Shown: positions 9,349 to 33,470, numbered from the stretch's first letter. The stretch is DNA of 64,000 nucleotides from an uncultured bacterium (GCA_964631125.1 CAZVYN010000002.1:1309-65308), one strand, 5' to 3'. Made by a program: numbers and translations. The notes: generated from the sequence alone by a model not told the origin.

Positions 9349-9381
9349 GTTTCGATGGGTCTCCGGTCGGTCGTATCAATT

Positions 9382-14231: not shown

Positions 14232-16289
14232 TCAGTCCCGCTTCGTTTCCTTCACGCGCCAGGTCTGGCCGTCGCGCACCATCGTGATCCTGAGATCGAA
14301 CGAACTGCTCTCACCGGTGGACGAGAGTGAAAAGGTGACGCGCCGCCTCGCCTCGACGGTGCCGTTCTCGTCGCGAAACGAAATCGTGCCGCTCGGCGCG
14401 ACGCGGATCTTCTCGGCGCGATCGAAGAGTCGAGTGAACACGCTGCGATCCTCGGCCGGCAGCGCGCCGCGGTAGAGGTCGCTCCCGAGCGCCATCAGGT
14501 CCTCCGCCGCCACGGCGCGATCGAAGCGCGCCAACAGCTCGTTCACCTGGTCGGTCGGATTGCTCGAGCCCTCGACGGTGACGGTGACCGAGGCGTCCGC
14601 CGCGGCGCCGTTCCCCTCGCGCACCTGCACGCGGGCGCGCTGGCGTCCGGTCGCGTCGTAGCGATGGGCGACGGTCGGTTCGGTCCCGAACTCGGTGTCC
14701 CAAACGCCGTCGCTCTCGAAGTCCCAGCGGTAGAGGAGCGCGGACGCCGAACCGAAGGCATCGGTGGAGCGCGAGGCGTCGAACGCGAATTCGGTCCCGC
14801 TCGGGCCGCTCGTCGGCCGCGCCGTTGCGAGAGCGCGCGGCCCCTCCGGCGTCGGCGGCGTCCCCGTCGTCCTGGTAGTTGTCACCGGCGCCGCATCCAA
14901 CACGCGCACCTGTCGCTGCGCGCTGTGGAGATTCCCCGCGGCGTCTCTCACCTGGACCGCGACGGTCCGCAATCCGATGGACGAGAACGAGTGCTGGTAG
15001 CTCGCGAGCTCCACCCAAGGCGTGTCCCAGTTCCCATCCCCCTCGAAGTCCCAACGAAAGCGCAGCTCGCTGGCCAGTCCATCCGGATCACGAGAGGCGC
15101 CCGCATCGAGCCGCGCGGTCGCGTCGATCTCCACGGTGGCGGGCGCATCGAGCGTGGCCACCGGCGCGAGTCCCTCCCTTTGACCGCCATCCCCTGGCGC
15201 GCGATCGGCCTGGGGATCGGCGACGGCCTCACGCGGCGTGGACGGCGTCCGCTCGATCGGCGTGTCGTCTTGCGTGAGCAGGAGCACGAGCAGGCTGAGC
15301 CCGAGCACACTCGCGCCGCCGGCCAGGGCGAGCAGCAAGCCGCGACGACGGGGTTGGACCGGCTTCCCCGACCGCGCGGCTGGGCTGGGACGGCGACGAG
15401 CGGCGGCGCTCGCGCCGGCCCCAGTGCCGGCATTCGCGTCGAGTCCCTCGAGCGCGGCGACGAACTCATCCATGGAGGCAAACCGATCCTCGGGCGACTT
15501 CGCCGCCGCCCGCAGCAGCGCATCGCAGAGCGCGCGTGGCGCATCGGGCCTGGCCTCGGCCGGGTCTGGCGGCGGTGTGTACCTGTGTTGGAAGAGCAGC
15601 TCCGCCGGATTCGGCGAGTCGAACGCGGGCCGCCCGGCCAGCATCTCGTAGCCGATCATCGCGAGGGCGTATTGGTCGCTCCGTCCATCGGCCGACGCGG
15701 CGCTCTCGGCCTGCTCCGGCGCCATGTACCGGGGCGAGCCGAAGTGGGAGAAGGTCTTCGTCAGTCCGGTCAGGCTGGAGTCGAGGATCTTGGCGATCCC
15801 GAAGTCGGTCAGCATCATCCGCCCACTGTGCGGATCGATCAGGATGTTCTCCGGCTTCACGTCCCGGTGGACGACCCCGGAACGGTGCGCGTGGGCGAGC
15901 GCCGATCCGATCTCTCGCAGCGCGCGGATCACGCTCTGGACCGGCAATTGCTTCGCTTCGGTCATCCGCATGCGGAGCGTCGGCCCGTCGACGAAGGCCA
16001 TCAGATAGAAACTGAGGCCGCCTTCGGTCAGAACGTCGAGGATCGGAACGATGTTGGGGTGGTCCAGGCGGCTCTGGGTCCGCGCCTCGCGGGCGAACCG
16101 CTCGAGCACCTCCGGCTCCTCGGCCAGATGCGGTTGCAGCACCTTGATGGCGATCGGGCGGTCCAGCGAGGTCTGTCGGGCAAGGAAGACGACCCCCATG
16201 CCGCCCCGGCCGAGCTCGCGGTCGATCTCGCAACGCCCCTCCAAGAGGCGCTGGAGGTGCTCCTTCAAGTCGCCAGAGGAGAGGTACAC
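14232..16289 (-). CDS. Ser/Thr protein kinase with transmembrane segment, two PKD-like domains and a C-terminal NTF2-like region
   Basis: Kinase motifs present: LGRGGMGVVFLA, AIKVL, HRDVKPENILI, DFGIAK, SPRYMAPE. Later segments RFRWDFEGDGNWD and LYRWDFESDGVWD are PKD-like. Confidence 0.9.
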   Translation of the reverse strand: MYLSSGDLKEHLQRLLEGRCEIDRELGRGGMGVVFLARQTSLDRPIAIKVLQPHLAEEPEVLERFAREARTQSRLDHPNIVPILDVLTEGGLSFYLMAFVDGPTLRMRMTEAKQLPVQSVIRALREIGSALAHAHRSGVVHRDVKPENILIDPHSGRMMLTDFGIAKILDSSLTGLTKTFSHFGSPRYMAPEQAESAASADGRSDQYALAMIGYEMLAGRPAFDSPNPAELLFQHRYTPPPDPAEARPDAPRALCDALLRAAAKSPEDRFASMDEFVAALEGLDANAGTGAGASAAARRRPSPAARSGKPVQPRRRGLLLALAGGASVLGLSLLVLLLTQDDTPIERTPSTPREAVADPQADRAPGDGGQREGLAPVATLDAPATVEIDATARLDAGASRDPDGLASELRFRWDFEGDGNWDTPWVELASYQHSFSSIGLRTVAVQVRDAAGNLHSAQRQVRVLDAAPVTTTRTTGTPPTPEGPRALATARPTSGPSGTEFAFDASRSTDAFGSASALLYRWDFESDGVWDTEFGTEPTVAHRYDATGRQRARVQVREGNGAAADASVTVTVEGSSNPTDQVNELLARFDRAVAAEDLMALGSDLYRGALPAEDRSVFTRLFDRAEKIRVAPSGTISFRDENGTVEARRRVTFSLSSTGESSSFDLRITMVRDGQTWRVKETKRD

Positions 16290-16524
16290 GGCTCGGGAGG
16301 GGACTCGACGTTCGGACAGAGGGGGAACACGGTAACCATGCGCGCCAGACTACGGTGCGTCCGGGGGACGGTCAAACGGCGGCGGCGGTGGGGCGGCGTC
16401 CGGGGGATCCAGACTGGGCTTGGCGGCGTCTCGGGTCGTATACTTGTCGCGCCCGATCGGGCCGACGGTTTCAGTCGCCGCCCGTCACAGCCGAAGCGCC
16501 AACAGCCGTAGAGGGGTATCACCC

Positions 16525-18039
16525 ATGTCTCATTTCGTGCGCCCAGTCGGTCCCTGCGCAGTCCTCCGCAGCTTCGCGCCCGCACTCGCGCTCGCACTCG
16601 CAGCGACGATCGGAGGGTCGAGCCAGGCGGACGCTCTCGGGACCACGCGAGTCGCCTCCGGCTTGAAGTATCCGGTCCATGTGGCGGCCCCGGGCGGCGA
16701 CACTCGACTCTTCATCGTCGAGCAGAACGGCGAGATCAAGCTCCTCAAGAACGGCGCGATCCTGCCGCTGCCGTTCCTCGACATGGACTTCTTGGTGCCG
16801 AACGTCTCGGGCGGCGACGAGCGCGGCCTGCTCAGCATGGCGTTCCATCCCAACTACGCATCCAATCGCTACTTCTATGTCTATTACGTGAATCAGTCGC
16901 AGCAAGGCGTGGTCGCGCGATTCCGGACGCTGGCGAACAACCCCGATCTGTGTGATGTGAACACTCGCTACGAGATCCTGCAGATTCCGCATGAATTCCC
17001 GAATCATTACGGCGGGTATGTGGCGTTCGGGCCTGACGGCTATCTGTACATCTCATCGGGCGACGGCGGGGGCGTCGGCGATCCGAGCAATCGCGCCCAG
17101 GATCTGACCGACTTCCGCGGTAAGATCCTCCGCATCGACATCGACGGCGGCGACCCCTACGCGATCCCGCCCACCAACCCTTTCGTCGGAGTGCCGGGCG
17201 CGGCCGAGGAGATCTTTGCCTACGGCCTGCGGAATCCCTGGCGCATCAGCTTCGACTCCGCCACCGGCGACATGTGGATCGGCGACGTTGGACAGGCGAC
17301 CAAGGAAGAGATCGACCGCATCCCGGCCGGGACGAGCGGTCAGAACTTCGGCTGGCGTTTGATGGAAGGGAGCGGTTGCTACAACCCGCCGATCAATTGC
17401 CCCACCGGCGGACTCACCTTTCCCGTCTGGGAATACGAGCACGGCGACAACGGATTCTCGGTCACCGGCGGCTTCGTCTATCGCGGTTTCCAGCATCCCG
17501 AGGTGTTCGGACACTACTTCTTTGCCGACTATGTCACCGCGCGGATCTGGAGTTTCAAGTATGTCGGCGGACAGGTCACGGAGTTGTTCGAGCGGACGGC
17601 CGAGTTGGATCCGCCGGGAGCGCTCGCGATCGGATTGATCTCTTCCTTCGGGCAAGGCCCCGACGGCGAGTTGTACATCATCGACCGGGACAGTTCGACG
17701 CAAGGCGAGGTGTACAAAATGGTGGAGTCGACCACCGATGCGCCCGGCTTCGATCCGCCCTCCTTGGTCTTCTTGGCGCCTTCGTACCCCAATCCGTTCC
17801 GGACCGATCTGCGCATTCCCGTCACTCTCATGCGCGAAGGCTCGCTCTCGCTCGACGTGCTCGATCTCTCGGGCCGCCGGATCCAGCGGGTCGCCACCGG
17901 CCAGTGGGCGCCGGGGACCCACCTGTTCGGCTGGGACGGGAAAGACGCCTCGGGCCAGCCGTCCGCGGCCGGCAGCTACGTCTTGCGGGTCTTGGTTGAT
18001 GGCCAGCAGCAGTCGCACTCGGTGCGACTGCTCCGCTAG
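16525..18039 (+). CDS. PQQ-dependent sugar dehydrogenase-like beta-propeller (sorbosone/aldose dehydrogenase family) with FlgD-Ig/T9SS-like C-terminal domain
   Basis: The internal ATG at 16525 gives the signal peptide FAPALALALAATIGGSSQADA. The motifs LFIVEQNGEIKLL and ERGLLSMAFHPNY are present. The C-terminus reads YPNPF...LDVLDLSGRRI...GSYVLRV. Confidence 0.8.
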   Translation: MSHFVRPVGPCAVLRSFAPALALALAATIGGSSQADALGTTRVASGLKYPVHVAAPGGDTRLFIVEQNGEIKLLKNGAILPLPFLDMDFLVPNVSGGDERGLLSMAFHPNYASNRYFYVYYVNQSQQGVVARFRTLANNPDLCDVNTRYEILQIPHEFPNHYGGYVAFGPDGYLYISSGDGGGVGDPSNRAQDLTDFRGKILRIDIDGGDPYAIPPTNPFVGVPGAAEEIFAYGLRNPWRISFDSATGDMWIGDVGQATKEEIDRIPAGTSGQNFGWRLMEGSGCYNPPINCPTGGLTFPVWEYEHGDNGFSVTGGFVYRGFQHPEVFGHYFFADYVTARIWSFKYVGGQVTELFERTAELDPPGALAIGLISSFGQGPDGELYIIDRDSSTQGEVYKMVESTTDAPGFDPPSLVFLAPSYPNPFRTDLRIPVTLMREGSLSLDVLDLSGRRIQRVATGQWAPGTHLFGWDGKDASGQPSAAGSYVLRVLVDGQQQSHSVRLLR

Positions 18040-19946: not shown

Positions 19947-22064
19947 TCACCTGAGCGCAATGACCCCGATCGGCTGCGGAATCAACTCCGGCGTCAGTTC
20001 GCGCATCGAGATGACGGCCGCATCCGGGAACTCGATTTCGACCAAACGGCGGATGAACGGCCGCACTTCGGGTTCGGTCAACACCACCGGCTTCGCCGCA
20101 GTGGGCGGCCGATCGCCGAGTTGGTTGCGGATGGCGGCCAGGATCTCCATCTGCATGTCGGGCGGGATGTCGATGTACTTGCCGGTCGAGGTGTGGCGGA
20201 TCGAGTCGGCCACGGTCTGTTGGATCTCGGGATCGATCTGATAGACGATCAACCGCCCGTCGCGCCGCGCGTACTTGAAGCAGATCTGCCGCGCCAGACT
20301 GCTCCGCACCAACTCGGTCAGCGCGATCGGATCACTCTCGATCCTCCCCCACTCGCTCATCGCCTCGAGGATCCCCTTCAGGTCGCGGATCGAGATCCCT
20401 TCGCGGACCAGGCGGCGCAACACCTCGGCGAGTTGATGCAGGCTGATCAGCTTCGGCACTACTTCTTCGACCAACTTCGGGTAGGCCTGGGCCAGATGTT
20501 CGAGCATCGTCTGCGTCTCTTGCAGCCCGAGGAACTCGTGCAGGTAGCGCTTGAGGAATCCCGCCATGTGCAGCACGAGCACCTCGGCCGGATCGACCAC
20601 CTGCATGCCGGCTTGCCGCGCGAGATCGGCCGACTCTTCGGGGATCCACGCCGCCGGCTGACCCGTCGCGGGATTCGTCGTCTCTTCCGCCGGAATCTGG
20701 AAGAGCGCGAGATTCTCGGCCGGCTCAGCCACGAGCACCTTCCCCGGCTCGATCCGCCCATGGTGGATCGGCGTCCCGCTCAGCAAGATCGTGAACGTGT
20801 TCTCCTGATGCGGCAGATTCCCGCGGATCTTGAGCGGCGGCACCAACACGCCGAGCTCATAGTAGAGAGAGTCGCGCAGCTCGGGGATCAGGCGTTGGAG
20901 CGTCTTCCCTCCGTCGCCGTTGCGATCGATCAGCTTGGTCAGGCTCTCGCTCACCTCGACCAGCACCGGCACGGCCAAGCTCAGTCCCGGCTCCTGCCGC
21001 GCCGCATCCTGCGCCTCGTCGGCCGCCCGCTCGCCCTCTTCGCGCTCCATCCGCTTCGTGCGCATGAGACCGAACGAGATCGCGCCGCCGATCAGGCCCA
21101 GCAGGAGGAACTGGACCATCGGCATCCCCGGGACCAGTCCGAGGAGACCCAAGAGCACCGCCACCACCGCGAGCGCCTTCGGCTGCGCGAGCATCTGCGC
21201 GCCGATGTCCCTGCCGACGTTGCTCTCGACGTCGTCAGTCGCGACGCGCGTGACGATGAAGCCGGCCGCCAAGGTGATCGCGACGGCGGGGATCTGGCTG
21301 ACCAGCCCGTCGCCGATGGTGAGCAGCGTGTAGAGCTGGAGCGCCTCGAGCGGCTCCATTCCCTTCATCATCACGCCGATCGCGAGCCCACCGACGATGT
21401 TGATCAAGAGGACGATGATCGTGAAGATCGCGTCGCCCTTCACAAATTTCATGGCGCCGTCCATCGCGCCGTGGAACTGCGACTCGCGCGCCAAGTCGGC
21501 CCGTTTCGCCTTGGCCTGATCCTGCGTGATCGAGCCCGAACGCAGATCGCCGTCGATGCTCATCTGCTTGCCCGGCATCGCGTCGAGCGTGAACCGCGCG
21601 CCGACTTCGGCCACCCGCTCCGCGCCCTTCGTCACCACCACGAAGAGGAACGTCGTGATGATGAGGAAGAGGATGAACCCGACGACTGGATTGCCCTTCG
21701 CCACCGTGTTGCCGAACGCCTCGACCACCTGGCCCGCGTGCGCATCGGCCAGGATCAATCGCGCGGTCGAGATGCAGAGCGACGCGCGGAAGAGCGTCGT
21801 CAACAGGAGGATCGCCGGAAACGCCGCCAGCCGCGTCGGATCCTGCGTGTAGACCGCGACGAACAAGATCGTGATCGAGATCGAGATGTTCAGCGCCAAC
21901 AAGATATCGAGCAGGAACGGCGGCAGCGGAATGATGATCAGCCCGAGCGCGAGGATCAGGAACCCCGCCAGCAACATGTCGCTGTACTTCGCGACCAGCG
22001 CGGTCAGATTCCCGCTCTTGATGTCGGCGATCATGTTGTCGATCCGTGACATGGGGGTCTCCAT
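19947..22064 (-). CDS. sctV: Type III secretion export-gate protein, FHIPEP family (SctV/FlhA); sequence details favour the injectisome SctV type
   Basis: FHIPEP blocks present: FPAILLLTTLFRASLCISTARLIL, GARFTLDAMPGKQMSIDGDL, RESQFHGAMDGAMKFVKGDAI, LTIGDGLVSQIPA, AGFIVTRV. The C-terminal segment reads GLQETQTMLEHL. An alternative ATG at 22052 has GGAGA 6 nt upstream. Confidence 0.85.
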   Translation of the reverse strand: METPMSRIDNMIADIKSGNLTALVAKYSDMLLAGFLILALGLIIIPLPPFLLDILLALNISISITILFVAVYTQDPTRLAAFPAILLLTTLFRASLCISTARLILADAHAGQVVEAFGNTVAKGNPVVGFILFLIITTFLFVVVTKGAERVAEVGARFTLDAMPGKQMSIDGDLRSGSITQDQAKAKRADLARESQFHGAMDGAMKFVKGDAIFTIIVLLINIVGGLAIGVMMKGMEPLEALQLYTLLTIGDGLVSQIPAVAITLAAGFIVTRVATDDVESNVGRDIGAQMLAQPKALAVVAVLLGLLGLVPGMPMVQFLLLGLIGGAISFGLMRTKRMEREEGERAADEAQDAARQEPGLSLAVPVLVEVSESLTKLIDRNGDGGKTLQRLIPELRDSLYYELGVLVPPLKIRGNLPHQENTFTILLSGTPIHHGRIEPGKVLVAEPAENLALFQIPAEETTNPATGQPAAWIPEESADLARQAGMQVVDPAEVLVLHMAGFLKRYLHEFLGLQETQTMLEHLAQAYPKLVEEVVPKLISLHQLAEVLRRLVREGISIRDLKGILEAMSEWGRIESDPIALTELVRSSLARQICFKYARRDGRLIVYQIDPEIQQTVADSIRHTSTGKYIDIPPDMQMEILAAIRNQLGDRPPTAAKPVVLTEPEVRPFIRRLVEIEFPDAAVISMRELTPELIPQPIGVIALR

Positions 22065-22239: not shown

Positions 22240-23739
22240 CTACTCCAGCGGCATGATCCAGATGTCGCCGATGTTGGCTTCACTCGCCGCGTAAACCAAC
22301 TGTTGGCCATCGGGCGACCAGGCAGGAACCGCCTCCGAACCAATGTCGAACGTGAGCTGCGTAGGTTCGCCACCGACCGCGGATATCATCCAGAGGTCGA
22401 ACGCACCGGCCCGTCTCGAGCTGAACGCGATTCGGGTCCCATCGGGCGACCAAGCCGGGCCGAAGTTGTCGGCTGGATCCGTGGTGACCTGAGTCCGCGC
22501 GCCTCCGCTCGATGGCATCGTCCAGATGTCGTAGTTTCCAGACTCCCGCGAGGTGTAGGCGATCGTGCTTCCGTCCGGCGACCAATCCATCACCCAGAGG
22601 TTCCAGCCGGCTTCGAGGAGCAGGGTCGGCGTCCCGCCCGTTGACGACACCACGTACATCTCACATCGAATGGGTACTTGGCCGAACTCGGTGAGTCGGA
22701 GGGCATACGCGATCTTCGTCCCGTCCGGCGACCAGGCAAGGGCGGTAACCGCCGTCGGCCGACCGTGACTCGCGATCACAACTGGGGCGGCGCCCACCCT
22801 CGGCTCCATCACCGAGAGTTCGCGGCTCGTGAAGGCGCCGTCCGGGCGCCGAGAGATGAACGCGAGCCGTTTGCCGTCCGAGGACCACTTCGGATGTTCC
22901 GCCCCCTCTTCGAGATTGGTTAGCCGTGATAGACCTTCCCCATCCGACCCGATGAGATAGATCTGTGGGCGTCTGTCTGCGGCCCAATCGGCGCTGAACA
23001 AGATCTCGGTCCCATCGGGGGACCAGTGCGGGTAACCAGCGCCCGGCGGCCGTGAGCTGGTGGTCAGGCGGAGTCGGGTGCGAGTTGTAGTACTCACGAC
23101 GTTGGATAACGTGGACTCGAGCGGCGTGTCGTCTATGGCGCGGATGGCGAAGAAGTACGTGAGCCCGGGCTCGAGTCCGGTCACAGTGAAGGACTCCTCG
23201 GCGCCCGCTGATTGCGGCTGGGGCACGCTGTCTACTCGCGACGCGGAGCCCCAGTTCTCATCCGTGATGGCCTCGAGGGAGTGCCGGAGGTCGTAGGCCG
23301 ACGCTGTACCGATCGACCCATCGCGCCCGGTCGCGGTCCACCTCAGGCTCACGCTGCTGCGGGTTTCCGTCACGATCTCCAAGTCGCCGATCGCTGCGGG
23401 CGGAGAGTCTCCGAGGACCGTGGCGGCAATGACGTTCGAGAGCTCGGACCAGTTCTGCGATTCATCCGCGGTCTTCAAGGCGAAGTACCGGAGTCCTGGA
23501 GCGAGCGCCTCCATGCTGAAGCTCTCGGGCTGTCCGGCCCGCTTCGGGGTCGGTGGCGATGGAACGATCGTCGCCGAGTCCCAACCGGCTTCGACGATCA
23601 CGCGATCCGCGAAGCGCAGATCGTAGATTGCCGCCTGGCCGTTGCTCCCGTCGTCGCCTGGCGCGGTCCAGGTCAGGGTGACCTCGTCGCTGGTGTTCTT
23701 CGCGAGGCGAAGGCTCTCGATGGCGGCGGGTGGTGTCAC
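22240..23739 (-). CDS. TolB-like protein: two fibronectin-III-like domains plus PD40/WD40-like beta-propeller repeats (mature part; see in-frame TAG upstream)
   Basis: Repeated WSPDGxxIAF/Y motifs (PD40) are present. The N-terminal half has FN3-like TLTWTAPGDDG and SLRWTATGRDG segments. The track start is a GTG at 23739. Confidence 0.8.
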   Translation of the reverse strand: MTPPAAIESLRLAKNTSDEVTLTWTAPGDDGSNGQAAIYDLRFADRVIVEAGWDSATIVPSPPTPKRAGQPESFSMEALAPGLRYFALKTADESQNWSELSNVIAATVLGDSPPAAIGDLEIVTETRSSVSLRWTATGRDGSIGTASAYDLRHSLEAITDENWGSASRVDSVPQPQSAGAEESFTVTGLEPGLTYFFAIRAIDDTPLESTLSNVVSTTTRTRLRLTTSSRPPGAGYPHWSPDGTEILFSADWAADRRPQIYLIGSDGEGLSRLTNLEEGAEHPKWSSDGKRLAFISRRPDGAFTSRELSVMEPRVGAAPVVIASHGRPTAVTALAWSPDGTKIAYALRLTEFGQVPIRCEMYVVSSTGGTPTLLLEAGWNLWVMDWSPDGSTIAYTSRESGNYDIWTMPSSGGARTQVTTDPADNFGPAWSPDGTRIAFSSRRAGAFDLWMISAVGGEPTQLTFDIGSEAVPAWSPDGQQLVYAASEANIGDIWIMPLE

Positions 23740-23757
23740 GTCCGGCGGCGTGGGCTA

Positions 23758-23829
23758 GATGTCGTCGTCGGAGCAGGCGGTGAGGAGGCCGAGGAGAGTC
23801 ATGAGAGTCGCCAAAGTCGACAACCGCAT
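23758..23829 (-). other. Lipoprotein signal-peptide coding segment in frame with 22240..23739 but separated from it by TAG (23755..23757)
   Basis: GGAGG lies 7 nt before the ATG at 23829. The translation MRLSTLATLMTLLGLLTACSDDDI is followed by TAG. The same frame then continues PTPPDVTPPAAIESL into the TolB-like ORF. Confidence 0.7.
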
Positions 23830-23964
23830 CGAGGGACCTCCTACTGCCGGAAAGGAGCGCGAGCAAGCTGAGGAACAGGGGAAAGCACGCGATCACCGCG
23901 AGTGGTCTGCACGCAGTGTCTGTGCTTCCCCCACCAAGACGGTCAGACCCGTTGGCCGCCAGCG

Positions 23965-24095
23965 TCAATCACAAGTTGAACAGTACTGCTCGTAGAGCAG
24001 GCAGTCCTCCTTGTTGTGGGCGATCACGCCTTGGGCAACGTAGGTACCTAGCTCGACCTGGAAGTTGTAGACGAGAGTCGGCTCAACAGCTCGCC
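23965..24095 (-). CDS. Hint C-terminal block in the -1 frame, continuing the previous ORF, plus a 15-aa Cys-containing tail
   Basis: Translation is AVEPTLVYNFQVELGTYVAQGVIAHNKEDCLLYEQYCSTCD then stop (TGA 23965..23967). It matches the terminal intein/Hint pattern VY[ND]-x-x-VE...[FY]-x-A-x-G-[IV]-x-x-HN. Confidence 0.6.
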
Positions 24096-24560
24096 GGACG
24101 GAATGACGCGGATCTTCTCGTTCACTACCACGAATTCCTCGACTGCAAAGGGACGAAACACTTTGACGACACGCGAAGATTTCATGCTCCCGTCGCCTTC
24201 ATCGTACGAAAGCACTTCGTCGCCCGCACGGATCGCTTCGACCGGCTTCGTGCTGCCGTCGGCGAGCGTGATCAAGGTTCCGGGCAGCAAGCAGTCACAG
24301 TGTGGCGCGCTTGGATTGCAGTTGCAGCAGGTGAAAATGCCCTCGCCACCATTACATTCAACTCCTGTCCACACACACTTCCACTTCCGATTCCCCGACG
24401 AGCACGAACCCGTCCATTCGATGTGCGCAACGCAGTCCGGATCGTTGCTGATGCACCACCCGGCAGTTACCTGATCGCACCTCGGACACGCGACCCCAGC
24501 GTCCAGCGGGACGGTCCAAGCAATGCAGACCGTCAGGATGGTAAGTGCGAGTTTGAACAT
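24048..24560 (-). CDS. Secreted Cys-rich protein with Hint (Hedgehog/intein) N-terminal block
   Basis: GGAAGGAAAGGGA precedes the ATG. The signal peptide is MFKLALTILTVCIAWTVPLDAG. The next roughly 65 aa contain 11 Cys. CLLPGTLITLADGSTKPVEAIRAGDEVLSYD then matches Hint block A. Confidence 0.75.
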   Translation of the reverse strand: MFKLALTILTVCIAWTVPLDAGVACPRCDQVTAGWCISNDPDCVAHIEWTGSCSSGNRKWKCVWTGVECNGGEGIFTCCNCNPSAPHCDCLLPGTLITLADGSTKPVEAIRAGDEVLSYDEGDGSMKSSRVVKVFRPFAVEEFVVVNEKIRVIPSGELLSRLSSTTSRSS

Positions 24561-25223
24561 GTTTCATCCCTTTCCTTCCCAGCTCACTAGAGCGGCGACC
24601 TCGACTTCAGGGATCGTTGGCCTGTCGGCGCGGGACGTCGGTCGATGTCCGCGGAGGTGCTTGTGCTCGGACCGCGCAGACCGCACAAGGCGATTGCCCC
24701 TCGAGTCGAGACCGAGGAATCGCGCCCTCAGAGATCGGTCACGGCGTCGCGTGTGGTTGGCCCCACCCGTCGCGAAACGGCCCTCACCACACCTTGGCGA
24801 CGAATGCAAATGCACACACCGTCTCCGAGTCGCGCGACCGCCAGCATGGGTCCGATCCGAGATCGAGCGAAGTTGGCGGCGCAGTCACGTTCGCCCCCCC
24901 CCCTAACATGTTGTCAATGGTTTCTTTCAGGTTGGGTGAGACACGGCGCGTTCTACAAGCACCGATGCCCCGGTGCACATCGTCCACGGCGAGCGAAACA
25001 CGCTGACACCGCTCTGCGGAGCCCGACGCGTCTGTGAACGAGTCGTGAGTCGCGCACGCGGAGGGCATCGCACGCCAATGCGCATTCGTCGACTCGCTTT
25101 GGCCTAGGTAGCGGACTTCACCCTGGTCGGGTCCCCCGACGATTTCACTGTTAGATCCCCCCTCCTGAATCGATTCCTGCGCGACGGCGACGCCCGCCGC
25201 CCCCTGACAGGAGGAGTCCCGCC

Positions 25224-28200
25224 ATGCGCACGTCCCTCGTTTCCCGCGCCTTCCTCGGCCTACTGGCAGTCGGCCTACTGGCAGTCGGTCTGCTGACGAG
25301 CCCCGCCTGGTCGCAGGGGTATGTCGAAGGCGAGGTGCTCGTGCGCTTCCGGCGCGGCGCGGACCGGCCCGCGCAGGAGCGTGCGGCCGCGCGGGTGCAG
25401 GGCGAGATCGTGAAACGGGATCCCGGGCTCGACTACGCGAAGCTCGAGCTCCTCGCCGGCACGACGGTCGAGGAGGCGGTCGCGCGGCTCGACGACGACC
25501 CCGCCGTCGTCTGGGCCGAGCCGAACTACCTGCGCGAGGCGCTCGACTGCTCGAACTCGCCGCAGGACCCTTACCTGCGCGACAACACCAGCGCGGTTGC
25601 GACGCGCGGCCAGTGGGGCGTGTTCCAGACCGGCGTCTACTCGCTCTGGCGTCACTTGGCGCCGACCGACACGGTCGTACGCATCGGGGTCATCGACTCT
25701 GGGATCAACAACTACGCCTCGCCGCATCCTTCGATCGCGCCCAACGTCCTGAACGGAGCGAACGATGGCTTCGACTTCGTGCAGACCGATACCGACCCCA
25801 CCGATCAGGGTCCGTGGAAAGGACACGGGACCGCGGTGGCCGGCGTCCTCGCGGCGGCCGCGGACAACCACGGGATCGTGGGGATCGCGCCCTGCGCGGA
25901 GTTGATCATCGTGCGCGCGCTCGACTGCAACCTCGAAGGTTGCCAGGGGAACGTGGAGCGCACCGCGAATGCGATCAAGTTCGCGGCCGACAAGAACTGC
26001 GACGTCATCAACCTGAGCCTCGGCGGCCTCCAGTACTCGAAGCTCGAGCGCGACGCCGTCCTCTACGCGATCGGGAAGGGCTCGATCGTCGTCGCGGCGT
26101 CGGGGAACGACACCGCCGACTCGCTCCGCTTTCCTGCGCGCTTCCCCGAGGTGATCGCGGTCGACGGCACGTCGTTCGCCACGCCGTTCGTGGCCGGGGT
26201 CTGCGGGCTCCTGCGCGCGCGCTTCCCCGAGATGAAGGCGCACGACGAAGCCTGGCTGCGCGCGCGGACGGTGGCGACTCCACAGCCGAACAAGGACGGC
26301 CACGGTCGCGTGGACTTCCCGCGGCTCGAGGACGCGAGCGACGTCGCCGTCTACGGCGCGACGTATCACAAGAACCACTTCTGGGAGTGGCTCGGCGAGG
26401 ACGTGACGCATGAGGCCTCCGACGACGACCCGGCGGACGACGACGGTGTGCCGAACAGCGTGGCCGACGGCGGGAACGACGGCGTGTTCCCCCGCTCGTT
26501 CAGCGAGCTGCCGTTCCTGCCCTACCACCTCAGCGGAGCAGAGTCGTTGAAGGTGCTCGTCTCGACGAGCCGCCACGACGGCCCGCGGTATGGCCCGGAA
26601 GCGATCAAGCGTCTCTACCTGGACGCCTGGTTCGATTGGGGCAGCGACGGCTCGTTCCACTTCGCGTACGACCGCGAGGTCGTGGGATACGCGATGAACC
26701 CGCAGGAGTGGGAAGGAGACTCCATGGAGGTCCGCCCGACGATCCTGCCGTTGGACGAGCACATCTTGGGGAACCCGCTCACCGTACGGACGCGCCTGCG
26801 CTACGGTAGCGACGATCCGGTGACCACCCCGGAGGGGTTCTCGGACCACGGGGAGGTCGAGGACACGCGGTTCATCAACTTCGTCGAAGAGTTCGACATG
26901 GAGCTGCGCGAGTTCTCGCCGCCGCCGCCCTACATGATGATGGGGGGCTGGGGGATCGTGGGCGATCCTCAGCCGCTCTGGAGCCACCACGGAACGTGGG
27001 AATTCGCGTCGTCGCCGCACCCGATCAGTCCCGCCTGCGACTTCGATCCCTCGCCGCCGAACCCCATGATCTCGCCGGTGATGGACTGGACGGAGTACTC
27101 GAGGGCGTTCGTGAAGTTCGACTACTGCCACGTGATCTTCCCGTGCCCGGGCGGCGGTGGCCCGGACCTCTGTCGCTTCGAGCTTCGGATCGGCGCCGCG
27201 CTCGCTTTCTCGACCCCGATCCCGGGCGGCTCCGGCACGATGTCCTTCGACTTCACCTCGTTCGTGGGTGTCCCCGGCGTCACCGCGCACGTGGTGATGG
27301 AGACGGACAAGCCCGGCGTCTTGTACGTGGACGACGTCCGGATCTGGGCGTACGACAACTCGAAGCCCGTCGCGCTGACCGATCTCGTCGCGTCGCGCCA
27401 GCCGGGCGGGAATGCGGTGCGCCTGCGGTGGAGCGATCCGAACGAGAACACGGCGCCGATCCCGCCCGGGGCGAATCCGCGTGCGAGCACCTACATGGTG
27501 CGCTTCGCGAAGGACCCGATCGCGACGCTGTCGGACTGGGATCTCGCGTCGCGCCTCCTGCGGAGGGACGCGCCCGGCGGATTCCCGGCGCCCGTGCCCG
27601 GCGCGGTGGACGCGTCGTTCGATGTCCCCTCCGCGCACCAGACCTATCACGTTGCCGTCCGCACCGGCGACGAGGTGACGAACCTCTCTCCGCTCAGCGG
27701 CAATACGCAGGAGTCGACGATCCCGGACCTGGCGCTCTCCGTGGTCGGCGGGCCGGACCAGGCGGTGTCGCCTGGACAGACGGTGATGCTCGAGTTCGCG
27801 CTCGCGAACGACGGCAGTGTGAAGGAGTCGATCCGCATCGACGCGACCGACACGCAGCTCTGGGTCGACGGATTCCAAGACATGGGACAGGTCTCCTCCC
27901 CGACGTGGCGCCTGCTCGACTATGGGACCTCCGAGGTACTGCAGGTCTGGGTGGGAGCCCCGCTTGGTAGCGGCGGCTCCACGGACACCGTCACCGTCGT
28001 CGCGACCGCGCTCTCCTCCGAGGGGACGGTGACCGACTCGGACCAGGTTGTCCTCACCGTCAGCGGTACGAGCTCTGTCGCACAGAACGGGCTCCCGTCG
28101 AAGGCGAGTCTGCGGCTCGTCGGCAACAACCCGAGCCGGGGCGCCGTCGTCATGCGCGCCGCCCTCCCGCGCGCCGGCGAAGTGACCGTCGACGTCTACA

Positions 28201-28376
28201 ACGCGGTCGGCGCGCGCGTGCGATCCGTCGCGCACCGGAGGTTCGCGGCGGGGCTGCACGACCTCACCTGGGACGGCGACGACGACGACGGACGCGAGGC
28301 GCCGTCGGGGGTCTACGCGGCGCGCCTCCGGGTCGGCAACGAACAGCGCGCCATCCGGATCGTGCGCGTGCGGTGA
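25224..28376 (+). CDS. Subtilisin-like (S8) serine peptidase with I9-like propeptide, about 650-aa extension and FlgD-Ig-like C-terminal domain
   Basis: GGAGGAG precedes the ATG and a signal peptide is present. The propeptide reads EVLVRFRRG...VVWAEPNY. The triad and oxyanion motifs are VIDSGI (Asp), HGTAVAGV (His), ASGND (Asn) and GTSFATPFVAG (Ser). The C-terminus reads GVYAARLRVG...IVRVR. Confidence 0.85.
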   Translation: MRTSLVSRAFLGLLAVGLLAVGLLTSPAWSQGYVEGEVLVRFRRGADRPAQERAAARVQGEIVKRDPGLDYAKLELLAGTTVEEAVARLDDDPAVVWAEPNYLREALDCSNSPQDPYLRDNTSAVATRGQWGVFQTGVYSLWRHLAPTDTVVRIGVIDSGINNYASPHPSIAPNVLNGANDGFDFVQTDTDPTDQGPWKGHGTAVAGVLAAAADNHGIVGIAPCAELIIVRALDCNLEGCQGNVERTANAIKFAADKNCDVINLSLGGLQYSKLERDAVLYAIGKGSIVVAASGNDTADSLRFPARFPEVIAVDGTSFATPFVAGVCGLLRARFPEMKAHDEAWLRARTVATPQPNKDGHGRVDFPRLEDASDVAVYGATYHKNHFWEWLGEDVTHEASDDDPADDDGVPNSVADGGNDGVFPRSFSELPFLPYHLSGAESLKVLVSTSRHDGPRYGPEAIKRLYLDAWFDWGSDGSFHFAYDREVVGYAMNPQEWEGDSMEVRPTILPLDEHILGNPLTVRTRLRYGSDDPVTTPEGFSDHGEVEDTRFINFVEEFDMELREFSPPPPYMMMGGWGIVGDPQPLWSHHGTWEFASSPHPISPACDFDPSPPNPMISPVMDWTEYSRAFVKFDYCHVIFPCPGGGGPDLCRFELRIGAALAFSTPIPGGSGTMSFDFTSFVGVPGVTAHVVMETDKPGVLYVDDVRIWAYDNSKPVALTDLVASRQPGGNAVRLRWSDPNENTAPIPPGANPRASTYMVRFAKDPIATLSDWDLASRLLRRDAPGGFPAPVPGAVDASFDVPSAHQTYHVAVRTGDEVTNLSPLSGNTQESTIPDLALSVVGGPDQAVSPGQTVMLEFALANDGSVKESIRIDATDTQLWVDGFQDMGQVSSPTWRLLDYGTSEVLQVWVGAPLGSGGSTDTVTVVATALSSEGTVTDSDQVVLTVSGTSSVAQNGLPSKASLRLVGNNPSRGAVVMRAALPRAGEVTVDVYNAVGARVRSVAHRRFAAGLHDLTWDGDDDDGREAPSGVYAARLRVGNEQRAIRIVRVR

Positions 28377-28389
28377 CGGCGGGGAGCGA

Positions 28390-29015
28390 TACGGCGCCAA
28401 GAGTTGCGCGGTCGGCCGTCCGGCGACATCGTCCAGAGATCGAAGCTCCCACCGCGTTCGGAGTGAAACGCGATCTTCGTTCCGTCCGGTGACCAGGCAA
28501 GGGCGTTCACTGTCGGTCGACCGTGACTCGCGATCACAACCGGCGCGGCGCCCACCCTCGGTTCCATCACCGAGAGTTCGCGGAGCGTGAAGGCGGCGTC
28601 CGCTCCGATCAAGTAGATCTGTGGGCGACTGTCCGGCTGCCAGTCAGCGCTGAACAACACCTCGGACCCGTCGGGCGACCAGTGCGGATAGATCGCACCA
28701 CCGAGGCGTGAGCTGGTGGTCAGGCGGAGTCGGGTGCGAGTTGAAGTACTCACGACGTTGGATAGCGTGGATTCGAGCGGCGTGTCGTCTATGGCGCGGA
28801 TGGCGAAGAAGTACGTGAGCCCAGGCTCGAGTCCGGTCGCGGTAAACGCCTCCTCGGCGCCTGCTGAATCTGGCGCGGGAACGCTGTCTACTCGAGTCGC
28901 GGAGTCCCAGTTCGCGTCGGAGATGGTCACGAAGGAATGCCGGAGGTCGTAGGCTGAGGCTGTGCCGATCGACCCATCGCGCCCGGTCGCGGTCCACCTC
29001 AGGCTCACGCTGCTG
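28390..29015 (-). pseudogene. Decayed, internally deleted second copy of the TolB-like gene at 22240..23739
   Basis: The translation shares long identical runs with the intact copy (SLRWTATGRDGSIGTASAYDLRHS, GLEPGLTYFFAIRAIDDTPLESTLSNVVST, RELSVMEPRVGAAPVVIASHGRPT). Whole propeller blades are missing. The 3-prime flank CGGCGCCAAGAGTTGCGCGGTCGGCCG is also shared with 22207..22233. Confidence 0.8.
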
Positions 29016-31502: not shown

Positions 31503-33470
31503 ATGTCCAGGAATCGAATCTTCATGACCGCCGCAGCGTTCGTCCTCTTCGGATTCATTGGTCTCGCGTTCCTCTCCATCTCATGCAGCGGACCGAAGTC
31601 CGGCGGCGGGATGTCGCAGGACTTGAACGCGTTGATGCAAGCGCGCGGCCTGACCGAAGCGGATGTTTCCGCCGCCCTCAAGACCTACACGCCGACTGGC
31701 GGCAGAGACGAGTTCCTGCTTTTCGCCTCCGGCGGACACGGAGGGAACCTGATCGTCATCGGGGTTCCGAGCATGCGGATTCTCAAGTACGTCGGGGTCT
31801 TCACGCCGGAGCCGTGGCAGGGATACGGCTTCGACGCCGAGACCCGAGGCGTGCTCGACGGCGGCAATCCCGAAGGCGTGGAGCTCTCGTGGGGCGACAT
31901 GCACCATCCCGCGATGAGCGAGACCAACGGCGACTATGACGGCGAGTACATCTTCGTCAACGACAAGGCGAACGCCCGCATGGCCGTCGTCGACCTGAAG
32001 GACTTCATGACGAAGCAGATCGTTTCCAGCGAGCTGATCCACTCGGATCACGGCGGATCGTTCGTCACGCCCAACACCGAGTACCTCATCGAGACCTCTC
32101 AACTCGCCGCCCCGCTCGGCGGCGGCTACGCCCCGCTCTCGGAGTTCAACGAGAAGTACCGGGGAGCGCAGATCTTCTGGAAGTTCGATCGCGCGAAGGG
32201 GCGTCTCATTCCGGAGGAGTCGTGGGCCGTCGAGTTGCCTCCGTACATGCAGGACCTGGCCGACGCCGGGAAGCTCGCCAGCGACGGTTGGATCTTCTGC
32301 AATTCGGTCAACACGGAGCGGGCCACCGGCGGCCTGTTGGAAGGCAAGCCCCCGCTGGAGTCGGGCGCCTCGCAGAACGACATGGACTACCTGCACGTCT
32401 TCAACTGGAAGCGCGCCGAAGAGGTCGTCCGCGCCGGCAAGACCAAGACGATCGCGGGCATGCGGGTCATCACCCTGGAGACCGCCATCGCGGAGAAGCT
32501 GCTCCACTTCGTCCCTGAACCGAAGAGCCCGCACGGGGTCGACATCGCGCCCAACGGCACGGACATCGTCGTCTCCGGCAAGTTGGACACGCATTGCACC
32601 GTCTACGACTTCAACAAGATCAAGTCGCTGATCGAGCAGGGGCGCTTCGAGGGGGTCGACCCCTACGGAGTCCCGATCCTGCCGTTCCGTGAGGCGATCC
32701 GCGGCCAGGTCGAGATCGGATTGGGTCCGCTCCATAGCCAGTTCGACGATCGCGGCAACGTCTACACGTCGCTCTTCATCGAGTCGAAAGTGGCCCGGTG
32801 GTCGCTCGCCGACTTGAAGCTCCTGGAGAAAGCCTCCGTTCACTACAACATCGGTCATCTCGCCGCGACCGAGGGCGACGCCCTGCATCCCCAAGGGAAG
32901 TACCTCGTCGTGATGAACAAGTGGGCGATCGACCGGTTCAACCCGGTCGGGCCGCTGCTCCCGCAGAACTTCCAACTCGTGGACATCTCCGGGCCTGAGA
33001 TGAAGGTGATCTACGACCTTCCGATTCCACTCGGTGAACCGCATTACGCGCAGATCATCCGAGCGGAAAAGATCAAGACGATCGAAATGTACACGCCGGT
33101 CGGAACCAACCCCATCACGGGACAGCTCGACCCGTCGGCGATCGACTCCGAGGCGAAGTCGAGGATCGAACGCAGGGGCAAGGACGTTCACGTCTACATG
33201 ACGCTCGTGCGGAGTCACATCCGGCCGGACATCATCGAGGTGAACAAGGGAGACACGGTGCACCTGCACGTGACCAGCCTCGAACAGGCGCTCGACGCGA
33301 CCCACGGACTGGCCGTCGATCGGTACAACATCAACCTGAGCGTCGAACCGGGGCGAACCTGCAACGTCAGCTTCGTGGCCGACCGAGCCGGCGTCTATCC
33401 GTACTACTGCACCGAATTCTGCTCGGCGCTGCACCTCGAGATGGCCGGCTACCTGCTGGTCAAGGGCTGA
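31503..33470 (+). CDS. nosZ: Nitrous oxide reductase, Sec-dependent (clade II / atypical) type
   Basis: The N-terminus MSRNRIFMTAAAFVLFGFIGLAFLSISCSG has no twin-arginine motif. Propeller blocks such as DGEYIFVNDKANARMAVVDL are present. The C-terminal CuA site reads HGLAV...YYCTEFCSALHLEM. Confidence 0.95.
   Translation: MSRNRIFMTAAAFVLFGFIGLAFLSISCSGPKSGGGMSQDLNALMQARGLTEADVSAALKTYTPTGGRDEFLLFASGGHGGNLIVIGVPSMRILKYVGVFTPEPWQGYGFDAETRGVLDGGNPEGVELSWGDMHHPAMSETNGDYDGEYIFVNDKANARMAVVDLKDFMTKQIVSSELIHSDHGGSFVTPNTEYLIETSQLAAPLGGGYAPLSEFNEKYRGAQIFWKFDRAKGRLIPEESWAVELPPYMQDLADAGKLASDGWIFCNSVNTERATGGLLEGKPPLESGASQNDMDYLHVFNWKRAEEVVRAGKTKTIAGMRVITLETAIAEKLLHFVPEPKSPHGVDIAPNGTDIVVSGKLDTHCTVYDFNKIKSLIEQGRFEGVDPYGVPILPFREAIRGQVEIGLGPLHSQFDDRGNVYTSLFIESKVARWSLADLKLLEKASVHYNIGHLAATEGDALHPQGKYLVVMNKWAIDRFNPVGPLLPQNFQLVDISGPEMKVIYDLPIPLGEPHYAQIIRAEKIKTIEMYTPVGTNPITGQLDPSAIDSEAKSRIERRGKDVHVYMTLVRSHIRPDIIEVNKGDTVHLHVTSLEQALDATHGLAVDRYNINLSVEPGRTCNVSFVADRAGVYPYYCTEFCSALHLEMAGYLLVKG

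Follow-up and report, generated by a model that had tools for sequence, protein, structure and literature searches.

BIL and PT-HINT domains have been known since 2003, with type A BIL domains reportedly going back to Amitai et al. 2003 and Dassa et al. 2004. To our knowledge, what they do in nature other than releasing toxins is largely unsettled. In type A BILs, a thioester forms at the N-terminal junction and the C-terminus is cleaved by Asn cyclisation, yielding mostly cleaved products and some products that are ligated when the freed amine attacks the thioester (PMC4031507, PMC7664689). By definition, a PT-HINT domain has pretoxin domains on one side and a toxin on its C-terminal side (Zhang, Iyer, Aravind 2011; PMC3113570). 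Here, we analyzed a Hint-containing locus within a 64,000-nt stretch of DNA from an uncultured bacterium (hereafter, the window). Judged by its relatives, the locus is likely an inactivated copy of a gene for a small secreted Cys-rich/BIL protein, from which ~103 nt between blocks B and F are missing. Our verdict on the window copy is that of a predicted pseudogene from an undescribed BIL-containing family.

Features of the window copy and its intact relatives

The Hint gene and its neighbors comprise the following features.

24048..24560, minus strand: ORF A, 170 aa (ORF list and translation)
24489..24560, minus strand: start codon and predicted Sec signal peptide, residues 1-24, MFKLALTILTVCIAWTVPLDAGVA (read from the sequence; aligns with relatives)
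24294..24488, minus strand: Cys-rich N-module, residues 25-89, 65 aa, 11 Cys by hand count (alignment of 25 modules)
24084..24293, minus strand: N-terminal Hint/BIL part in frame A, from Cys90 (block A) to a degenerate block B (family HMM nodes 85-158)
24079..24083, minus strand: putative deletion junction, a single AGCCG (DNA alignment with L003/L001)
24048..24078, minus strand: out-of-frame end of ORF A (…LSSTTSRSS) and stop codon at 24048-24050 (translation; overlaps the frame-B Hint part)
24013..24081, minus strand: C-terminal Hint/BIL part, blocks F and G, PTLVYNFQVELGTYVAQGVIAHN, in frame B (translation; family HMM nodes 190-216)
23965..24012, minus strand: conserved tail KEDCLLYEQYCSTCD, 15 aa, and stop codon at 23965-23967 (translation; conserved across relatives)
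22240..23829, minus strand: lipoprotein gene MRLSTLATLMTLLGLLTAC..., two fn3 domains and a PD40/Tricorn-type beta-propeller (Pfam)
25224..28376, plus strand: S8 peptidase gene with FlgD_ig tail, divergent from the Hint gene

The ORF list and the translation bear out what an earlier note had read from this DNA: a 170-aa ORF with a signal peptide, 65 residues with 11 Cys and a block A starting from Cys, followed in another frame by a terminal Hint block ending in HN and a 15-aa tail. The hydrophobic N-termini of all full-length relatives align with window residues 1-24, and a ribosome-binding-like GGAAAGGGA is found upstream of the ORF A start. Block A is opened by Cys90 of ORF A and reads CLLPGTLITLADGSTKPVEAIRAGDEVLSYD; this residue, the N-terminal nucleophile in CLLPGTLITLADGSTKP, aligns with Cys1 of all relatives. 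Frame B reads ...AVEPTLVYNFQVELGTYVAQGVIAHN and continues into the tail, which carries a Cys at +4 plus a CxxC pair. The His-Asn is not part of the same polypeptide as Cys90, VIAHN being located in the other frame, downstream of the ORF A stop, and the +1 residue following it is Lys, both in the window and in all tail-bearing relatives. Block B reads IRVIPSGELL in the window versus I-R-L-T-E-N-H-P-L-L in relatives, placing I-P-S-G at the positions of Thr-x-x-His; the catalytic Thr and His are gone, and the absence of a TxxH block B recorded earlier holds. The four changed block-B codons amount to many substitutions, which look odd beside the otherwise well-kept sequence.

Pfam searches of the window ORF and the joined translation yielded sub-threshold Hint matches (16-19 bits versus cut-offs of 27-32; 14-19 bits across the four Hint models at block A), with Hint_2, Hint, Hom_end_hint and Vint models placed at residues 87-146, and Intein_splicing matched the C-terminal block weakly (12-13 bits, profile positions 125-155 of 155). 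The window copy thus covers the profile ends 2-39 and 125-155 alone and no full-length profile, and NCBIfam contributed one weak intein-related match. Pfam and NCBIfam remained non-decisive for the window copy until relatives turned up. An initial search with the joined translation as query identified six proteins of 225-238 aa (P0001-P0005 and P0008), which share a signal peptide, a Cys-rich module, a complete PT-HINT with T-E-N-H-P, the His-Asn and a tail KEDCxxYxQYP, and whose PT-HINT is ~34 residues longer than the Hint of the window. A further entry from Candidatus Eisenbacteria MAGs (P0006) is N-terminally short, and the underlying DNA holds a full 234-aa ORF, indicating that its database start was mis-called. 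The orthologue L003 is syntenic with the window and encodes at 7481-8185 an intact 234-aa protein, and the same fn3+PD40 gene comes after it. Searching 1.84 billion representatives with a profile extended the family to ~30 clusters of full-length small members (213-255 aa), alongside tens of thousands of generic PT-HINT matches in large proteins.

Intact members match Pfam PT-HINT at 43-52 bits (cut-off 27.7; positions 4-136 of 137), and their PT-HINT/BIL domain spans 127-131 aa, typically ~128. In an AF2 model of P0001, the Hint part adopts a full BIL fold at pLDDT 85-94, with the BIL structures 6y75 and 2lwy as best fold matches (target TM 0.79-0.86). The family profile also matches 2lwy, the BIL structure of Aranko et al. 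2013, at the sequence level (E 2.6e-14). Subtype A, to which the window copy belongs, conserves Cys1, T-[EQ]-[NTA]-H-P and a His-Asn followed by Lys; block B of subtype B reads T-x-x-Q-P. The tail of intact members measures 9-19 aa with a conserved KE[DN]C..[YF].Q[YF]. Together, the alignments show an ancestral layout of signal peptide, ~65-aa module, ~128-aa PT-HINT/A-type BIL and tail KEDCxxYxQYC..C. Against a profile derived from 29 intact relatives, ORF A occupies nodes 5-158 (162 bits) and frame B nodes 184-225 (54 bits), far beyond chance. Since both fit parts of one family profile, the two frames belong to one gene, as the earlier note had supposed; of the Hint-profile check it had proposed for the joined translation, the Pfam side stayed sub-threshold and the family profile matched both halves. 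No second copy of the gene was found in the window by tblastn with intact relatives.

The gene has a GC content of 57.4% versus 66.6% for the window. This dip, previously read as a lower-GC islet, is real, and it recurs in the orthologue (58.2% versus 67.0% in its surroundings) and, at smaller size, in other relatives; the dip thus characterizes the gene family rather than a local islet. A low-GC islet or horizontal transfer was rejected on these grounds and because searches around the window gene found neither repeats nor signs of mobile elements.

The Cys-rich N-module follows a family pattern derived from 25 modules, P-x-C-x-Q ... C ... C ... I-x-W-x-G-x-C ... R-x-W-[RK]-C-x-W ... C-x-C ... 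C-D. Modeled alone by AF2 with 22 aligned sequences, the window module yields three beta-strands at pLDDT 87.5 and pTM 0.70. It has no Pfam match, and a Foldseek comparison of the model with the PDB returned no significant fold match (best E 0.9); pleiotrophin and laterosporulin, considered as fold matches, were discarded as noise-level. A profile of the 25 modules alone, searched against a set of 5.8 billion proteins, returned nothing at E <= 0.01, known members included, because the module is too short for a database of this size. Among the relatives found, the module is always followed by a complete Hint, an association that rests on members identified via their Hint. The module thus represents a confidently predicted small domain without a Pfam or PDB relative. 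ORF A as such is intact and retains the signal peptide and this confidently modeled module, an observation that counts against full inactivation.

The Hint gene has an adjacent fn3+PD40 gene in the window as well as in L001-L004, L007, L014, L016, L093 and L094. In both the window and the Eisenbacteria orthologue locus, an fn3+PD40 gene comes next in the same orientation, the two being 45-47% identical. The arrangement varies: in L093 and in an 81-kb contig encoding P0008 the fn3+PD40 gene is located upstream of the Hint gene, L007 carries a tandem Hint-PD40-Hint-PD40-Hint followed by an IS630-like transposase, and a divergent Acidobacteriota member (L010) has two tandem Hint copies without an fn3+PD40 neighbor. 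In the limited library searched, we found no literature on a pairing of such BIL genes with fn3+PD40 lipoproteins. The divergent S8 peptidase gene noted earlier is indeed present; its suggested role as a maturation protease was rejected on synteny, as a tblastn search of 10 related loci with the S8 protein detected no S8 gene near other family members and matched solely an FlgD_ig-like C-terminal tag in L014. The conserved neighbor is instead the fn3+PD40 lipoprotein.

The probable deletion and its alternatives

DNA alignment of the window copy with the syntenic orthologue L003/L001 reveals one 103-nt gap (34 codons + 1; alignment columns 500-602). The missing stretch is bordered in the orthologue by an AGCCG direct repeat on both edges, and the window keeps one AGCCG; as the orthologue is just ~60% identical in DNA, the deletion size, its edges and the AGCCG microhomology are estimates drawn from a relative, not observations of the ancestor. 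Likewise, tblastn with five intact relatives returns two pieces in different frames, leaving 28-35 query residues between them unmatched (residues 153-184 in the case of L003), and family HMM nodes ~159-189 are absent from the window copy. The earlier note had placed a 1-nt frame change near 24085-24095. Its position was close to the actual junction at 24079-24083, and its size gives way to ~103 nt missing relative to the orthologue, so that correcting the frame alone restores no Hint. With 32-34 residues of the fold removed and the frame shifted, translation ends at 24048. The two Hint pieces of the window total 95 aa, versus the ~125-140 residues of a complete fold, and the ~95-aa minimal Hint proposed earlier is an artefact of the deletion, given that intact relatives have 127-131 aa including T-E-N-H-P.

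Two other ways of aligning the region were considered. A two-deletion alignment equating IPSGELL with W-V-x-A-G-E-L reaches 48% DNA identity versus 57% for the single deletion; it is the less supported of the two and is kept as a caveat. Block B, as aligned, is absent under either alignment. A reading of frame B upstream of the junction, with HSVRRAVE as homologue of FSIEKVEA, has ~39% DNA identity and was judged to reflect chance.

Mechanistically, the deletion would have arisen between short direct repeats, corresponding to the AGCCG of the orthologue. The Hint of the window copy would no longer fold or cut, and the cell would make at most a 146-aa secreted fragment consisting of the Cys-rich module and half a Hint. 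The lipoprotein gene, with its start at 23829, contains a TAG at codon 25 (23755-23757), which is shared by the window and four of the six contigs compared; L088 and L091 carry AAG (Lys) instead. Given the deletion in the one gene and the TAG in the other, both are damaged in the window strain, and the two-gene cassette of Hint gene and lipoprotein gene may be in decay in this lineage. The frame-B piece is free of stop codons and shares ~70% identity with the orthologue, implying that the break is recent or that the piece is still under some constraint; from this degree of conservation, the deletion is probably recent, not long-standing decay.

Whether the break exists in the organism at all bears on this reading, as the window stems from a metagenome-type assembly and the out-of-frame part shows conservation and a fully open frame, which would fit a gene that is intact in the cell and broken by a sequencing or assembly artefact. 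We consider this extremely unlikely. JGI, ENA and Logan assemblies, hence three pipelines and several samples, together yield 21 contigs with the exact 170-aa ORF; six of them, compared with the window over 2.9-6.5 kb, show 99.93-99.99% identity. The loss of ~103 nt is no homopolymer slip, and a 5-bp repeat would be too short to mislead a k-mer assembler. The identical ORF across 21 contigs rather indicates a real, fixed allele of one population, and its fixation in every contig seen argues that it is not strongly deleterious. The same fixation speaks for a truncated ORF that still works, as a secreted Cys-rich protein that has lost autoprocessing and carries the half-Hint as a C-terminal extension: the start, the ribosome-binding-like sequence, the signal peptide and all module cysteines are kept, the module alone is modeled at the confidence given above, and the mature truncated product contains 12 Cys as counted from the translation, an even number. 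We nevertheless regard a working truncated protein as unlikely, since no relative has such a layout as its intact form, a beta-fold reduced to an 80-aa fragment would probably not be stable, and the window strain has its partner gene knocked out too. Moreover, other lineages lose the gene through IS insertion or frameshift, the Hint gene being interrupted by an ISL3-like transposase in L014 and carrying a 1-nt frameshift in L016.

Both frames are open across the junction, and Cys1 and the His-Asn are present, as would be expected if programmed ribosomal frameshifting near 24080 produced a functional ~95-aa Hint. This is barely conceivable, given that the domain of relatives, at 128 aa, is already minimal and the 32-34 residues lost from it make up core strands, that block B lacks its Thr and His, and that two-frame use by design is seen in no relative, the observed splits being an IS insertion and a 1-nt error-like shift. 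In a plain reading of the sequence, neither a slippery site nor a downstream structure stood out. A polymorphic-toxin remnant, that is, a pretoxin-HINT protein that has lost its toxin domain, was raised in the earlier note, and decay is indeed what we propose for the window copy. Relatives match Pfam PT-HINT, and RHS/YD toxins, L012 and L020 among them, contain a Hint of the same type. The toxin part of this proposal is highly improbable: in ~30 intact clusters, what comes after the Hint is a conserved tail of 9-19 aa and not a variable toxin; RHS, filamentous or PAAR parts are missing from proteins composed of a Sec signal and a 65-aa module alone ahead of the Hint; and the downstream gene encodes a conserved lipoprotein of ~500-530 aa, not a small immunity-type protein. 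Intact members thus have neither a toxin domain nor an immunity-type gene. We read the window copy itself as a case of ordinary gene decay, and as a warning that the "minimal Hint" seen in raw sequence was a deletion artefact.

A possible processing route in intact members

Cysteines flanking the Hint of intact members co-vary. Of 33 complete members, 20 have a Cys at -2 as well as at +4 and the other 13 at neither position, with no mixed cases; this co-occurrence largely tracks one subfamily and may reflect few independent events. Outside Cys1, the number of Cys (N-module, tail and any extra Hint Cys) is even in 29/33 members, the exceptions being P0054, P0057, P0060 and P0084, with the Hint itself usually containing Cys1 alone; signal-peptide ends were set by eye for these counts, and the relatedness of members means that the counts overstate independence. 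Large Omnitrophota-type proteins with the same Hint at their end (P0110, P0143 and P0146) likewise combine a proximal upstream Cys with a tail Cys, hinting that the pairing has recurred independently. The -2/+4 co-occurrence and the parity suggest that both flanks may form part of one disulfide-bonded product.

In such a route, the N-module would fold with 4-5 disulfides after Sec export. The BIL domain would then form a thioester at Asp|Cys1 and be cleaved after the His-Asn by Asn cyclisation, thereby excising itself. N-module and tail would stay together as one mature product of ~80 aa, linked through a disulfide between Cys(-2) and Cys(+4) and/or joined by aminolysis-type ligation as in type A BILs, and this product would act with the adjacent fn3+PD40 lipoprotein. 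As a whole, this four-step reading of intact members (module folding, Hint self-excision, a joined ~80-aa product and a lipoprotein partner) is the one we prefer, but it is tentative, and we hold it with some reserve. More doubtful still is the specific view of the BIL-type Hint as a self-removing connecting peptide, with the joined product as a ligand or partner of the fn3+PD40 surface lipoprotein; if it were true, the window would hold a recently killed copy of such a signaling/adhesion cassette.

The main alternative for intact members is a Hedgehog-like release of the module alone. The earlier note had proposed such peptide release, which fairly describes a possible activity of intact relatives and is inapplicable to the window copy. 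The conserved His-Asn and the Cys-bearing tail argue for BIL-like excision at both junctions rather than for an N-terminal release only. The family offers a compact, testable case for how BILs act in nature, be it by release, by disulfide-tethered excision or by true ligation.

Comparison with known systems

Intact members resemble Hedgehog/Hog proteins in having a signal peptide, a small cargo ending at the Hint Cys (...HCD|C) and a Hint near the C-terminus, and a thioester at the cargo C-terminus is the expected first step in both. Hog domains are not known to have the terminal His-Asn, which the family conserves. Unlike Hedgehog proteins, the family has no sterol- or adduct-recognition region, only 9-19 aa follow its His-Asn, and the conserved Cys in this tail suggests that the C-flank is kept. 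Structure 1at0 is a distant fold match to the P0001 model (E 1.9e-5, rank 32). Given the missing adduct-recognition region and the retained His-Asn, the family does not belong to the Hedgehog/Hog context.

Class 1 mini-inteins and split inteins share the fold and blocks A, B, F and G with the family, and the break in the window copy falls between blocks B and F, the site of natural splits and of endonuclease insertions. Unlike class 1 inteins, the family has no +1 Cys/Ser/Thr, no conserved housekeeping host and no homing endonuclease, and the missing +1 nucleophile sets it apart from this class. A split intein was considered for the window copy and rejected, as the C-terminal piece has no start codon of its own and the two pieces together reach just the 95 aa given above.

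Pretoxin-HINT proteins are matched by the same Pfam model (PF07591), have a predicted autoproteolytic role and are exported, in common with the family, whereas the family lacks a toxin domain, an immunity gene and a long N-terminal trafficking region. With no toxin domain after the Hint, it falls outside the polymorphic-toxin context (PMC3113570).

The closest agreement is with type A BILs, as intact relatives have Cys1, T-x-x-H, the His-Asn and no +1 nucleophile (Lys instead) and are secreted, non-housekeeping hosts. The window copy differs from type A BILs in lacking block B and 32-34 core residues. The hosts differ as well: type A BILs are flanked by hypervariable regions of large surface proteins, whereas the family host has ~225 aa, of which the BIL makes up over half, and its flanks are conserved with co-varying Cys. 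A literature search in a limited library found no description of a small family of Cys-rich module, BIL and tail, an absence that is no proof of novelty. The Hint is of a known kind (PT-HINT/type A BIL), in a host family that would be undescribed as far as this search reached. What distinguishes the family among BIL-containing proteins is the combination of a BIL in a very small protein, two short conserved flanks, co-varying Cys on both sides and a conserved partner gene.

Partner gene and neighboring ORFs in the window

Downstream of the Hint gene, the gene for the fn3+PD40 lipoprotein (22240-23829, minus strand) carries a premature TAG at codon 25 (23755-23757, minus strand), because of which its automatic ORF call begins late, at GTG 23739. 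The same stop was identified in four of the six near-identical related contigs shown (L087, L089, L090, and L092), while L088 and L091 read AAG (Lys) at this codon. Other genes and ORFs of the window are:

19947-22064, minus strand: FlhA (FHIPEP, E 3e-227)
31503-33470, plus strand: NosZ-like protein (nos_propeller + cupredoxin)
28313-29008, minus strand: further PD40-repeat ORF
23916-24590, plus strand: 224-aa ORF, antisense to and overlapping the Hint gene
23462-23968, minus strand: 168-aa ORF, overlapping the start of the partner gene in another frame

No recurrence of FlhA, the NosZ-like gene, or the 28313-29008 ORF was found near other family members. The two overlapping ORFs were not counted as genes, their Arg/Pro/Gly-rich products being typical of spurious frames in GC-rich DNA.

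Cassette arrays, broken copies, and mis-called starts

In a Candidatus Eisenbacteria MAG (JADJQY010000001.1, L007, 8001-15384), Hint and PD40 genes form a tandem Hint-PD40-Hint-PD40-Hint array whose leaders are nearly identical; an IS630-like transposase (15519-16550) comes after it. Counting L001 and L002, this MAG harbors at least five Hint gene copies. Broken copies were observed elsewhere. At locus L014 (7986-10132), an ISL3-like transposase gene (8551-9819) interrupts a family member after ...HAPFTAQK; the C-terminal half of the Hint gene picks up at ~9857, with the PD40 gene next, at 10454. A Spirochaetaceae MAG (L016, 1996-2657) contains a member with a 1-nt frameshift after GDLVMG, so that this copy may be genuinely pseudogenized or the shift may stem from faulty assembly; the start of an fn3 gene follows at 2834. 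The PD40 partner gene is whole in L002 and in the syntenic orthologue L003; in L001 (10628-12109), on a contig of long-read style (tig...), it lies in three frame-shifted pieces. These breaks are probably indel errors, and frameshifts in such MAGs should therefore be read with caution.

The 136-aa protein P0006 (NCBI IT349_07570; L001/L003) begins at an internal Met (MADGSTK), yet the underlying DNA encodes 234 aa, including a signal peptide and the Cys-rich module, showing that the annotated start is wrong. P0007 seems to have been truncated in this way too.

Subtype B and Hint domains in other architectures

Subtype B, the second form within the family, comprising P0008, P0035, P0057, P0062, P0068, P0083, L010, and others, displays G-G-G|C-F at the N-terminal junction instead of C-D|C-L, and its block B reads T-x-x-Q-P, with Gln in place of His. 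Members lack Cys at -2 and +4 (positions before Cys1 and after His-Asn), and a Y-P-C-x-G-C tail is often present. L010 carries His-Arg where His-Asn is expected, a replacement that should preclude C-terminal cleavage.

Many matches of the family profile search contain 2-12 Hint stretches. In an Omnitrophota SAG (L011, 4567-6603), three consecutive Hint domains lie within a single protein, each beginning directly after the His-Asn-Lys of the preceding one. Very large surface proteins of 350-1,800 aa were also recovered (L008, L009, L013, and L015, from Omnitrophota and Planctomycetales MAGs, and P0110, P0143, and P0146). All of them terminate in the same Hint followed by a tail of only 8-15 aa, and several pair a Cys 2-4 residues upstream of Cys1 with a Cys 4-6 residues past His-Asn. 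As these large proteins end likewise, the architecture in which a Hint and a short tail close the protein extends beyond the small family.
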